Shown here piece by piece: positions 40,248 through 41,611 of a DNA stretch of 64,000 bases. The translations under genes and the position numbers were made by a program. Each line of letters opens with the position of its first letter. Position 1 is the first letter of the stretch. The stretch is from Escherichia phage vB_EcoM_G2285. The stretch lies in sequence record MK327933.1. The stretch is one strand, 5' to 3'. The notes beneath the pieces were generated by a model. That model had not been told where the DNA came from. It did no database searches and saw only the letters and a program-made list of their open reading frames with translations.

Positions 40248-40535
40248 TTAACAACTTGTAGTGTCCTTCATACGTGGTTTATCCCAAGAAATACTAATAT
40301 ATGATTCACTGTCAATAGAAGTCGCCGGGTTTTTCTCTACCGTAAGACCTTCACTTTCCAGCCATTCAATAGTATTTGCGCATAAATCGGAAGAACACCT
40401 CATCGGGAACCGGCAAGATTTTTCACCTTTAGCTGCAGTGTTATACATCTTTTCTAAAATACGCTTTTGAACGTTTTTAAAAATAGTTTCAGCAGATTCT
40501 TCAGATTTTTTATTCAGTTCAGTGTAAAGACCCAT
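40248..40535 (-). CDS. Hypothetical cysteine-containing small protein
   Basis: 95 aa ORF. Confidence 0.5.
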   Translation of the reverse strand: MGLYTELNKKSEESAETIFKNVQKRILEKMYNTAAKGEKSCRFPMRCSSDLCANTIEWLESEGLTVEKNPATSIDSESYISISWDKPRMKDTTSC

Positions 40536-40625
40536 AATATTCTCCTCATGTTTTGATAGGTCTATAGTAACACATCTAGGGAAGAAGTAAACATCTTTAT
40601 GAAATATTTTTATGCCCTAGATACC

Positions 40626-40651
40626 AAAAAACCCCAACCATAAGGAAGGGG
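40626..40651 (-). terminator. Rho-independent terminator downstream of the tRNA cluster
   Basis: Hairpin CCCCTTCCTTATGGTTGGGG followed by TTTTTT on the minus strand; near-identical to the terminator at 27092-27119. Confidence 0.55.
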
Positions 40652-40704
40652 CTAAGCCTTGCGGCAACCTTGTCGGGGTTCCACCTGCTAAGGCAAGTGT
40701 TTGT

Positions 40705-40796
40705 ACGAAACGCCGGGATTTGAACCCGGTTATTAAGTAGTTGACGCTACTCAATATTTTTAAAAGGCCATATCTCGACCGTATCCGAACGTTCCG
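40705..40796 (-). ncRNA. tRNA-like structured RNA (canonical T-arm and acceptor-type pairing; body not canonical)
   Basis: T-arm CCGGG-TTCAAAT-CCCGG; putative acceptor pairing CGGAACG / CGTTTCG; no standard D or anticodon arm found by eye; could be a small stable RNA or a type II tRNA. Confidence 0.3.
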
Positions 40797-41052
40797 TCAA
40801 AAACGCTACTCGGCTTACGGCAAAGATATTTCCTCGAATCGATAATTCTGTGCGCCGTTTCTGCTGTGATGTAAGGGGATATTAACGAATCATAAAGATT
40901 TATTAAGACCAGTCCTTACTCAGGGAACATCAGTCCGACGACTTACCGGTAGCGACCCGGCTTCTTATTTTGGCATATCATCAATTTGATCCTATAAAAT
41001 ATAGGAGTATTTATTATTTGGATAGAGCACTTAATTTACTTCGTTTAAATTA

Positions 41053-41124
41053 CTGGCGCACTTGGACTCGAACCAAGATAAAGGAGTTAACAGCTCCCCG
41101 TAATAACCTTTATACGATGCACCA
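41053..41124 (-). tRNA. tRNA-Asn (anticodon GUU), CCA not encoded
   Basis: Hand-folded cloverleaf: acceptor TGGTGCA/TGCGCCA (one G-U), D-loop AAAGGTTA, anticodon stem GGGAG/CTCCT with loop CTGTTAA, T-arm CTTGG-TTCGAGT-CCAAG. Confidence 0.6.
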
Positions 41125-41130
41125 TTTGTT

Positions 41131-41205
41131 TGGTGACCCTGGCTGGTTTCGATCCAGCTACCTATCAGTTATGAGCTGACAGCTCTCCCATTGAGCTACA
41201 GGGCC
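41131..41205 (-). tRNA. tRNA with CAU anticodon (Met, or Ile if C34 is modified), CCA encoded
   Basis: Hand-folded cloverleaf: acceptor GGCCCTG/CAGGGTC, D-stem GCTC/GAGC, anticodon stem GTCAG/CTGAT with loop CTCATAA, T-arm GCTGG-ATCGAAA-CCAGC, 3' ACCA. Confidence 0.6.
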
Positions 41206-41326
41206 TAAATAACTTTCTATTATGAAAGGCACTTTAGAGCACCTTTGGTAATAGAGGGTACTTATTAATAATAACACATAATTCTTAAAGCAAATTAATC
41301 ATTTTTACTGTCAGTAAAACAATTTC

Positions 41327-41611
41327 TCACCATATTGTGTATGTGTTCTGAATGCAATCAAGTCCTAAAGGATTCTTGAAGATGTCGTATTCAACTGGGC
41401 CTGATTCAGTTTCAATAAAGAAATCAAAATTAACCGTGTTGAATTTACGGTCTTCCCAAATCAATTTAACTTGTGAAGATGAACGGTCGACATAAACCTT
41501 TTCAACTTCAAAATTAGTCAGAATACCGTAGTCATCGACTAGTGCTTTAGCTGCACGTTGATCGCTTTCATATCCATTCTCAATGGACGATACTTTAGCA
41601 TAAAGAATCAT
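41327..41611 (-). CDS. Hypothetical protein
   Basis: 94 aa ORF. Confidence 0.5.
   Translation of the reverse strand: MILYAKVSSIENGYESDQRAAKALVDDYGILTNFEVEKVYVDRSSSQVKLIWEDRKFNTVNFDFFIETESGPVEYDIFKNPLGLDCIQNTYTIW

Follow-up and report, generated by a model that had tools for sequence, protein, structure and literature searches.

The block at positions 40600-41250 of the window (the whole 64,000-nt stretch of DNA analysed) is the minus-strand tRNA/small-RNA operon of a T4-like (RB69-type) Mosigvirus, a kind of locus that is already known, in which two tRNA genes are followed by rnaD and rnaC. What the analysis establishes is the homology, the order of the genes and the secondary structures backed by covariation; leaving function apart, we place high confidence in the claims of identity and structure taken together. 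Knowledge of the T4 species 1 (rnaC) and species 2 (rnaD) RNAs goes back to the 1970s, and the corresponding T4 locus is annotated with eight tRNAs, rnaC and rnaD. The cluster is therefore reduced relative to T4, as a first-pass annotation of this DNA had described it, with two tRNAs here against eight there and rnaC and rnaD in both. That annotation had also pointed to a tRNA-like third element and to about 250 nt of unassigned sequence that might hold a structured RNA; the RNA content of both is upheld, but the link to the two stable RNAs of T4 had not been drawn. Alignment with T4 identifies the third element as the 3′ two-thirds of rnaC and places rnaD in the unassigned stretch.

Read along the minus strand, the operon runs from a middle-type promoter through tRNA(CAU), tRNA-Asn(GUU), a scar, rnaD, a 6-nt spacer and rnaC to a terminator (Table 1). 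The mature ends given for rnaC and rnaD are transferred from the T4 annotation.

Table 1. Features of the tRNA/small-RNA operon, in order of transcription (positions in the window).
Feature	Position	Strand	Basis
Candidate T4 middle-type promoter of the tRNA operon	41268-41294	-	Read from the sequence
MotA-box-like TTTGCTTTA	41286-41294	-	
-10-like TATTAT, 12-nt spacer to the MotA-box-like element	41268-41273	-	
CAU-anticodon tRNA, encoded CCA	41131-41205	-	ARAGORN; Rfam RF00005, 59.4 bits
tRNA-Asn (GUU), no encoded CCA	41053-41124	-	ARAGORN; Rfam RF00005, 53.6 bits
Scar, ~88 nt	40965-41052	-	
Orphaned upstream leader of lost homing-endonuclease gene, 61 nt	40992-41052	-	Comparison with Mizar
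Late-promoter-like AATAAATA within the leader	41008-41015	-	7 of 8 positions match TATAAATA
Deletion junction (GGA before the join, TCAAATTG after it), AATTG microhomology	40982-40992	-	Pairwise BLAST; comparison with L068
3′ remnant of RB69ORF150c-like gene, 27 nt	40965-40991	-	Alignment with ATK47, PhAPEC2 and Mizar
rnaD, T4 species 2 RNA homologue, 120 nt	40849-40968	-	T4 alignment; coordinate mapping
rnaD 5′ hairpin, loop GUCGCUA	40945-40961	-	Fold
rnaD closing stem	40936-40942 with 40850-40857	-	Fold
rnaC, T4 species 1 RNA homologue, 139 nt	40704-40842	-	T4 alignment; annotated rnaC in relatives
rnaC acceptor-like stem, 7 bp (nt 2-8 with nt 131-137)	40835-40841 with 40706-40712	-	Covariation
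rnaC 10-bp hairpin, loop CGUCAA almost invariant	40731-40756	-	Fold; alignment
rnaC T arm, CCGGG-UUCAAAU-CCCGG	40713-40729	-	Sequence
Terminator-like structure closing the operon (AACCCCGAC ... GGUUGGGGUUUUUU)	40626-40680	-	Sequence; fold

Across the whole 64-kb window, ARAGORN returned exactly two tRNAs, with anticodons gtt and cat, and the Rfam tRNA model (RF00005) matched the same two above its gathering score of 29 bits, so that both fit the cloverleaf profile with its 7-nt anticodon loop. The two programs gave the same coordinates and anticodon for the tRNA-Asn and concurred on the CAU tRNA with its encoded CCA, recovering both genes and anticodons as first proposed from hand folding. The covariance-model search was divided in its outcome, with RF00005 matching both tRNAs but not the third element. 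The tRNA-Asn is 98% identical to that of Mizar-type Mosigviruses, and matches Salmonella phages STP4-a and SEA1 with 100% identity over 79 nt.

The CAU tRNA is probably of the tRNA-Ile2 type (lysidine-modified and reading AUA), orthologous to T4 tRNA-Ile rather than a tRNA-Met, an assignment drawn from similarity and from published determinants in the acceptor stem rather than from an isotype-specific model. Over its 5′ 18 nt it is identical to T4 tRNA-Ile, with which it agrees in the acceptor stem and D arm. The anticodon stem and T arm are unlike (75-80% identity overall), and the T4 gene lacks the encoded CCA present here. The CAU anticodon, the GGCCCUG acceptor strand and the pairs C4:G69 and C5:G68 are common to this tRNA, T4 tRNA-Ile and E. 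coli tRNA-Ile2 (ileX type). Both pairs, present here in the acceptor stem GGCCCUG/CAGGGUC, are reportedly among the determinants recognised by TilS. In E. coli, BLAST matched the CAU tRNA only to genes annotated as tRNA-Ile with a CAT anticodon, although weakly (E = 4e-3, 75% identity).

An ordinary elongator tRNA-Met is on balance an unlikely identity for this gene, even though ARAGORN labels it Met and the CAU tRNA of relatives is mostly annotated as tRNA-Met in GenBank. The ARAGORN label carries little weight because the program cannot separate Ile2 from Met, returning ‘Met cat’ for T4 tRNA-Ile as well, and Met for an E. coli gene annotated as tRNA-Ile in RefSeq. The agreement with T4 tRNA-Ile in the acceptor stem and D arm also speaks against Met, as do C4:G69 and C5:G68 in place of the U4:A69 and A5:U68 of E. 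coli tRNA-Met. Bacterial initiator tRNA-fMet is marked by a mismatch at 1:72 and by a run of three G-C pairs in its anticodon stem; here G1 pairs with C72 and the anticodon stem (GUCAG/CUGAU) reads G-U, U-A, C-G, A-U and G-C, with no G-C triplet, and an initiator was rejected. As a tRNA-Ile2, it would receive its lysidine from host TilS and would supplement decoding of AUA, a codon rare in E. coli and frequent in the phage (12.4 per 1000 codons in the ORFs of the window).

The elements of the candidate promoter were assigned from the T4 middle-promoter consensus, and the segment containing them (41265-41304) is 90% identical to that just upstream of the first T4 tRNA; a generic scan for sigma-70 promoters passed over the candidate. 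Beyond rnaC, the inner part of the terminator-like structure is annotated in PhAPEC2 as an ARNold terminator, whereas a generic terminator scan missed the structure here because its loop is long.

The homology of rnaC to its T4 counterpart (T4s001) extends over the full length, with 136 of 139 nt identical (97.8%). The two genes share length, predicted fold and position as the last gene of the operon, here following the tRNAs and rnaD and preceding the terminator, and each of the three substitutions that separate them lies in or beside a helix and keeps the pairing. Among relatives, rnaC is annotated in ATK47, and both rnaC and rnaD in RB3 and RB68. Some 800 GenBank records have a match to rnaD-rnaC. 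The earlier reading of 40705-40796 as an RNA that resembles a tRNA without being one stands, but mapping from the T4 annotation puts its true 5′ boundary at 40842, giving 139 nt rather than 92. Identity to T4 is 91% for the rnaD-rnaC-terminator block and 73-80% for flanking coding DNA, making rnaC the most conserved segment of the locus, with nearly invariant loop nucleotides. In Karamvirus, Moonvirus and Gelderlandvirus, rnaC resides between tRNA-Trp and tRNA-Gly, like one more tRNA gene, and it is absent from JS10- and VR20-type phages. Pattern scans for distant homologues of rnaC and rnaD in IMG/VR and metagenomes recovered only Tevenvirinae-type copies plus chance matches, which were filtered with a covariance model (R1), and the same kind of scan of bacterial genomes gave no match for either RNA.

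rnaC is predicted to fold into a four-way junction, its own 5′ end pairing with the 3′ end. The resulting acceptor-like stem lies immediately next to a canonical 5-bp T arm whose loop is UUCRAAU, a ~65-nt arm replaces the D arm, the 10-bp hairpin occupies the position of a class-II variable arm, and there is no anticodon arm in the fold supported by covariation. The minimum free energy is -52 kcal/mol (z = -5.0). Model R1 scored rnaC of the window at 169 bits, while true tRNAs gave weak matches (13-26 bits). RNAalifold found compensatory changes at 22 of 45 pairs, and a model-based alignment of 22 distinct sequences found them at 30 of 47. In this alignment 93.6% of cells are paired, a figure that drops to 38-44% on sliding the partners; none of 500 shuffles equalled the observed pairing and covariation values. 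Within the acceptor-like stem, where 74% of cells are paired, pair 3 changes from A-U to G-C in 10-12 sequences and two U.U mismatches are present in 20 of the 22, both being replaced in Tegunavirus, by U-A and C-G. With the T4-derived ends, a single U is unpaired at the 5′ end, and the stem is followed at the 3′ end by just UA rather than NCCA.

These compensatory changes, a signature of RNA-level selection, leave next to no room for the stretch encoding small proteins instead. Mechanical ORFs do occur (for example a 45-aa TTG ORF at 40617-40754 on the minus strand), and ‘hypothetical protein’ features overlie the homologous DNA in many GenBank records, but the ORFs are short, begin with TTG or GTG and run across the RNA boundaries, and the corresponding transcripts of T4 have been characterised as stable RNAs.

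The acceptor-type pairing and T arm of the first-pass annotation hold in part: the T arm is canonical and the pairing exists in the letters, but covariation favours 40835-40841 as the 5′ partner. Built on the original pairing, the third element would be a degenerate class-II-type tRNA of ~92-94 nt (40705-40797), or, in a weaker variant, such a fold would alternate with the 139-nt one. Here the acceptor would be ACGGAAC/GUUUCGU, the 10-bp hairpin the variable arm and the CUUUUAA junction the anticodon loop. The 7-bp pairing (40791-40797 with 40705-40711) is paired in 90.3% of cells across 22 sequences, ARAGORN reports a tRNA over exactly these 3′ 94-95 nt for two relatives (G4500, as tRNA-Lys(ttt), and PG7, as tRNA-Met(cat), both calls being carried by GenBank), and the junction heptamers of several lineages fit Y-U-NNN-R-N. 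However, this pairing displays zero compensatory change, its paired fraction and covariation score fall under the shuffle means, a U-to-C change in the 3′ strand goes with G-to-A in the partner to leave A.C in 9 of the 22 sequences, and Tegunavirus has three mismatches. ACGGAAC covaries instead with local hairpin partners inside the 139-nt fold, and is not supported as the acceptor 5′ strand. RF00005 gave no match to the third element at E<=10 in the window or E<=5 in G4500 and PG7, ARAGORN is silent on it in both the window and T4, and the T4 annotation gives species 1 RNA as 139 nt. An anticodon stem is lacking, and an invariant AGG/CCU helix takes up the heptamer's CU, so the likeness of the heptamer to an anticodon loop is probably coincidence. 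We consider the degenerate tRNA very unlikely.

The resemblance of the four-way-junction RNA to a class II tRNA is limited to the 7-bp terminal stem beside the T stem and its loop, and to the hairpin one nucleotide 5′ of the T arm, placed like a long variable arm; an unpaired invariant GG could, by analogy, act as the equivalent of G18-G19. In contrast with a canonical tRNA, rnaC lacks an anticodon arm, a D arm of normal size and any RF00005 match, and has the two U.U mismatches and the UA tail. An acceptor/T-arm minihelix on a non-tRNA body also recalls the tRNA-like domains of non-decoding RNAs such as tmRNA and the bacterial Y-RNA-like YrlA and, by functional analogy, would be compatible with processing by tRNA enzymes, although rnaC has no match to their models and lacks a G3:U70 pair, a tag reading frame and a Ro-binding stem. 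A tmRNA was rejected, with no ARAGORN tmRNA or Rfam match and with pair 3 being A-U or G-C.

rnaD is 85.8% identical to T4 rnaD (T4s002) and 98% to that of ATK47 and other Mosigviruses. Its invariant 5′ module (CCGGGUCGCUACCGG-AAGUCGUCGGACUGA) and 3′ module (CACAGCWGAAACGGCGCAC) are both present unchanged and, like its place directly upstream of rnaC, are common to T4, whereas the sequence of the apical hairpin is unlike T4. Across lineages the internal loops are invariant and the apical hairpin varies among three types. Fifteen aligned sequences have 97.7% of cells paired, compared with 28-48% once the partners are slid, and five pairs covary; covariation cannot test most of the helices because they are invariant. 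The minimum free energy has z = -2.4. Inspection by eye for a K-turn, a 5′ hairpin resembling a T arm or the topology of a permuted tRNA gave no fit, and intermolecular pairing between rnaD and rnaC reaches 6 bp at most, the two genes also occurring independently of each other. BLAST with the window rnaD found none beside rnaC in Karamvirus-type loci. We infer that rnaD is an independent structured RNA.

Alignment, coordinate mapping and folds place four things in the formerly unassigned 40797-41052: rnaD, the 5′ third of rnaC, a 27-nt ORF150c-like tail and a 61-nt leader. A tRNA with a large intron (ACGAAGU at ~41036-41042 with GUUUCGU) was dropped, as T4 homology puts rnaD and rnaC between these segments. 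Curated Rfam models, for group I introns or others, gave only chance-level matches to unrelated families in this stretch (E 0.75-9.9), and at gathering and permissive thresholds, across the window and five related loci, Rfam returned nothing for rnaC or rnaD beyond chance. The chance matches were ceN54, isrK and anti-hemB, with YrlA falling on true tRNAs.

The reduction of the cluster, as far as the nearest relatives are concerned, is a deletion of ~1.07 kb by pairwise BLAST: Mizar has, and the window lacks, a homing-endonuclease gene, tRNA-Arg(UCU) and the greater part of ORF150c. In Mizar, the leader sequence extends almost to the start codon of the NUMOD3/DUF559 endonuclease gene, a few bases short of it; the late-promoter-like element in the leader was identified against TATAAATA, the late-promoter consensus. 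The ORF150c remnant keeps its stop codon TAA (40965-40967) and overlaps the start of rnaD by 4 nt, so that rnaD, which directly follows tRNA-Arg in T4, here follows the ORF150c tail. No junction-spanning record was found among 50,697 phage records.

In T4, RNAC and RNAD are expressed as RNAs of the late class, as seen by Northern blot (PMC9697503). They are without known function according to the literature (PMC9697503, PMC3014915, PMC12685909), and our literature search for a function returned only statements to that effect. We tentatively propose that rnaC, unable to decode, may act in trans as a tRNA mimic occupying a tRNA-recognising host or phage factor. Its acceptor/T-arm minihelix would let RNase P and tRNA 3′-end enzymes cut rnaC from the polycistronic transcript, and would keep it stable.

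It is unlikely that rnaC and rnaD are cis-acting processing or stability modules (nuclease entry, 3′ protection) or slowly decaying relics of tRNA genes. Both lie in a tRNA operon directly upstream of its terminator, each has been cleanly lost in some lineages (rnaC in JS10-/VR20-type phages, rnaD beside Karamvirus-type rnaC), and some 50 years have passed without a function being found, all in keeping with such a role. The relic form is nevertheless disfavoured because a relic would not be so conserved, rnaC being 97.8% identical against 73-80% for neighbouring genes, with loops nearly invariant. Karamvirus and Gelderlandvirus hold rnaC inside the tRNA array, not at its 3′ end, it is kept here though the tRNA set is down to two, and in T4 it accumulates as a discrete RNA (PMC9697503).

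We see only a small chance that rnaC is a tRNA-derived decoy, soaking up either an enzyme that modifies or processes tRNAs or a host defence directed at tRNAs (PrrC, RloC or PARIS-type anticodon nucleases). In such a decoy, what was once a class-II tRNA body would no longer decode, locked as a four-way junction by its conserved 46-nt 5′ extension, with the acceptor/T-arm face and the exposed junction strand staying displayed. In E. coli phages this strand is CUUUUAA, identical to the anticodon loop of host tRNA-Lys. A decoy would thereby explain the near-total conservation, the dispensability on laboratory strains and the lineage-specific junction sequences.

The biology of the window contains nothing unexpected, but retention of rnaC with a two-tRNA set, together with the highest conservation of the locus, makes the question of the role of the species 1 and 2 RNAs a sharper one. 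A convergent SNP in rnaD, which arose as a T4-like phage adapted to a semi-permissive host, hints that rnaC and rnaD matter in a host-dependent way (PMC12685909).

For annotation, the proper labels for the block are tRNA-Ile2-like(CAU), tRNA-Asn, rnaD and rnaC. Many deposited T4-like genomes carry ‘hypothetical protein’ coding sequences over rnaC and rnaD, and spurious 94-95-nt ‘tRNA-Lys’ or ‘tRNA-Met’ genes have also been deposited over rnaC. Rfam has no family for either RNA, and the covariation-supported model of rnaC could seed one.

The first-pass annotation had read this locus as a reduced tRNA cluster holding two tRNAs and a tRNA-like RNA; the observation is correct and the interpretation essentially right. 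ARAGORN found exactly two tRNA genes in the whole 64-kb window, both on the minus strand, and together with the Rfam tRNA model (gathering score 29 bits) it returned the same coordinates and anticodons; the CCA reported for the CAU tRNA is present in the sequence. Beyond these two tRNAs, no Rfam family matched 40500-41350 above chance. By BLAST, 40600-41250 matched about 1,300 T4-like phages among 50,697 phage records, with Mosigviruses (RB69-like) as the top matches at 95-97% identity, and none of the 50,697 records covers 80% of the region in one place.

Features of the tRNA and small-RNA locus
Feature	Coordinates	Strand	Length (nt)	Basis and comparison
rnaC	40704-40842	-	139	Alignment with T4 and ATK47, T4 coordinates transferred; 97.8% identical to T4
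rnaD	40849-40968	-	120	T4 coordinates transferred; identity 85.8% (T4), 98% (ATK47)
ORF150c tail	40965-40991	-	27	Part of the stretch first left unassigned
Extra segment	40992-41052	-	61	No counterpart in ATK47 or PhAPEC2
tRNA-Asn(gtt)	41053-41124	-		ARAGORN; Rfam tRNA model, 53.6 bits
cat-anticodon tRNA, CCA encoded	41131-41205	-		ARAGORN; Rfam tRNA model, 59.4 bits

The tRNA-like element (40705-40796) is the 3' two-thirds of rnaC, the homologue of T4 species 1 RNA, because the transferred T4 coordinates put rnaC at 40704-40842(-). The stretch left unassigned, 40797-41052, contains the first 46 nt of rnaC, a spacer of 6 nt, rnaD, the ORF150c tail and the 61-nt segment; the suggestion that it might hold another structured RNA was borne out by rnaD, the homologue of T4 species 2 RNA. 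In T4, eight tRNAs and segB are followed by rnaD (119 nt) and rnaC (139 nt). The ATK47 locus runs tRNA-Met(CAU), tRNA-Arg(UCU), an ORF150c-like gene and an ncRNA annotated as 'rnaC; small stable RNA; species 1 RNA', and that of PhAPEC2 comprises tRNA-Met, tRNA-Asn, tRNA-Arg, ORF150c and a terminator. For each element of the locus there is a closely matching counterpart that has been known for a long time and is already annotated in relatives. The short segment 40538-40610, which lies upstream of the adjacent gene (40248-40535, minus strand), is ~72-75% similar to ATK47 (retrieved locus L001, 34-107) and T4 (L003, 4018-4090), where the counterpart lies downstream of the internal-head-protein gene; it probably represents a module shared by these phages that carries an early promoter and leader (GTTTAC...TACTAT).

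The minimum free energy fold of rnaC is -52 kcal/mol (z = -5.0 against shuffles). We built a covariance model from homologues in Tequatro-, Mosig-, Gapriver-, Karam-, Moon-, Teguna- and Gelderlandvirus and Klebsiella phages, with 22 distinct sequences in the alignment. Across these the structure is 93.6% paired, compared with 38-44% when helix partners are shifted, and 30 of 47 pairs show compensatory changes; none of 500 shuffles reached the observed values. Nucleotides 2-8 pair with 131-137 as a 7-bp acceptor-like stem, in which pair 3 alternates between A-U and G-C and the two U.U mismatches are replaced by U-A and C-G pairs in Tegunavirus. An arm of ~65 nt opens with an invariant AGG/CCU helix, and in its Gelderlandvirus and Klebsiella-phage versions nearly all of the sequence is replaced with pairing retained. 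An invariant unpaired GG sits just before the CCU strand, and the junction strand is A/U-rich, 8-10 nt long and variable between lineages. A 10-bp hairpin with a nearly invariant CGUCAA loop is followed, 1 nt later, by a canonical T arm (5 bp, loop UUCRAAU) abutting the acceptor 3' strand. In this architecture rnaC combines the acceptor/T-arm half of a tRNA with a body that lacks an anticodon arm; the covariance model also matches genuine tRNAs weakly (13-26 bits).

The canonical T arm originally proposed for the third element stands, but the acceptor pairing proposed with it is not supported. That helix, ACGGAAC (40791-40797)/GUUUCGU, can form, with 90% of cells paired, but shows no compensatory change across the 22 sequences, is A.C in nine of them and breaks in Tegunavirus. 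It also falls below the shuffle mean, and in the 139-nt fold the nucleotides involved covary with partners close by. ARAGORN calls this 94-95-nt 3' segment of rnaC tRNA-Lys(ttt) in G4500 (L010, 667-760) and tRNA-Met(cat) in PG7 (L006, 651-745), as does GenBank; the Rfam tRNA model rejects the segment, G4500 and PG7 included. Public records mislabel this 94-95-nt part as tRNA-Lys(ttt), tRNA-Met or tRNA-OTHER, and many place 'hypothetical protein' CDSs over rnaC and rnaD. Speculatively, its tRNA resemblance may reflect class-II tRNA ancestry. After an invariant GGCC, the junction strand (40757-40767) resembles an anticodon loop whose triplet differs by lineage: CUUUUAA in T4 and Mosigvirus, CUUUGAA in Moon- and Gelderlandvirus, CUUCUAA in Tegunavirus, UUCAUAA in PG7 and CUUACAA in locus L025. 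Since the first two bases of the heptamer are paired in the invariant helix, this look is probably a coincidence or a relic.

For rnaD we collected 19 distinct sequences, of which 15 were folded together. The predicted consensus, 97.7% paired against 28-48% with shifted partners, has two invariant elements, a 5' hairpin (CCGG-GUCGCUA-CCGG) and a 7-bp closing stem, together with conserved internal loops, a covarying inner stem and an apical hairpin in three versions unrelated in sequence. One pair clearly covaries, being U-A in seven sequences and A-U in six, and the MFE z-score is -2.4. Support for this structure is moderate, because most helices never vary.

Matches to 41130-40982 at 97-98% come from ten Mosigvirus records, among them Mizar, WFK and F2. 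The order in Mizar is tRNA-Asn, the sequence of the 61-nt segment, a NUMOD3/DUF559 homing-endonuclease gene, tRNA-Arg, ORF150c, rnaD and rnaC. In the window, the endonuclease leader (...TATTTTATAGGA) is joined straight to the final codons of the ORF150c gene (TCAAATTGATGATATGCCAAAATAA) at an AATTG microhomology, and ~1.07 kb is absent relative to Mizar; no record among the 50,697 spans this junction. The leader keeps a late-promoter-like AATAAATA (41008-41015), called by comparison with the late-promoter consensus. The reduction of the locus is twofold: Mosigviruses have two or three tRNAs against eight in T4, and this genome has in addition lost tRNA-Arg(UCU). The window ORFs use AGA at a frequency of 8.6 per 1000 codons although this tRNA is deleted; nearly all relatives carry it, and the window has no further tRNA. 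The window also lacks an ORF151c-like gene upstream of the tRNAs. Mizar (L068, 1119-1604) and PhAPEC2 (L002, 900-1424) have this ~0.5-kb RB69ORF151c-like gene between the Trna.2 homologue (41327-41611, minus strand, in the window) and the tRNA promoter; in the window, compared at 41327-41367, only its last ~43 nt are left.

Judged by sequence, the CAU tRNA is likely a tRNA-Ile2-type decoder of AUA. ARAGORN labels any CAU tRNA 'Met', including T4 tRNA-Ile and an E. coli gene that is tRNA-Ile in RefSeq. The first 18 nt of the window tRNA are the same as in T4 tRNA-Ile, as is the acceptor stem, and in E. coli BLAST matched tRNA-Ile(CAT) genes only. The pairs C4:G69 and C5:G68, which are TilS determinants, are present; at these positions E. 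coli tRNA-Met has U4:A69 and A5:U68. With G1-C72 paired and no G-C triplet in the anticodon stem, the tRNA is not an initiator. Of the Ile codons in the window, 16% are AUA (12.4 per 1000 codons). Over 79 nt the tRNA-Asn allele (41053-41130) shows 100% identity to its counterpart in the Salmonella Gelderlandviruses STP4-a and SEA1, and BLAST gave no alignment to the tRNA-Asn of PhAPEC2. In Mizar-type phages (L068, 1807-2618) the allele adjoins a homing-endonuclease gene, which suggests that it travelled together with this mobile gene.

In T4, host RNase P, RNase E and 3' exonucleases release the tRNAs, along with species 1 and species 2 RNA, from the polycistronic transcripts that contain them. 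The rnaC minihelix could serve as a processing handle and a source of stability; less strongly, since rnaC has no anticodon arm, it might mimic a tRNA toward some tRNA-binding factor. The accessible literature describes RNAC and RNAD as late-expressed RNAs of no known function (PMC3014915, PMC9697503, PMC12685909). What the analysis demonstrates for the window is its gene content, deletion history and RNA secondary structures; curated models exist for neither RNA.

The rnaD-rnaC block is present in about 800 phage records, but either gene can also occur without the other. JS10- and VR20-type phages (L012, L011) and loci L063-L067 lack rnaC as a precise cassette, the rnaD end (...GCGCACMGAA) running directly into CACTTGCC..., the usual rnaC-downstream sequence. 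In Karam-, Moon-, Teguna- and Gelderlandvirus, rnaC lies inside the tRNA array, typically between tRNA-Trp and tRNA-Gly, and BLAST with the window rnaD found none beside it. Pattern scans of 185,579 genomes of bacteria and archaea returned zero copies of rnaC or rnaD, and in metagenomes the only copies were of T4 type. Identity to T4 is 73-80% in flanking coding DNA, 91% across the rnaD-rnaC-terminator block and 97.8% for rnaC alone.
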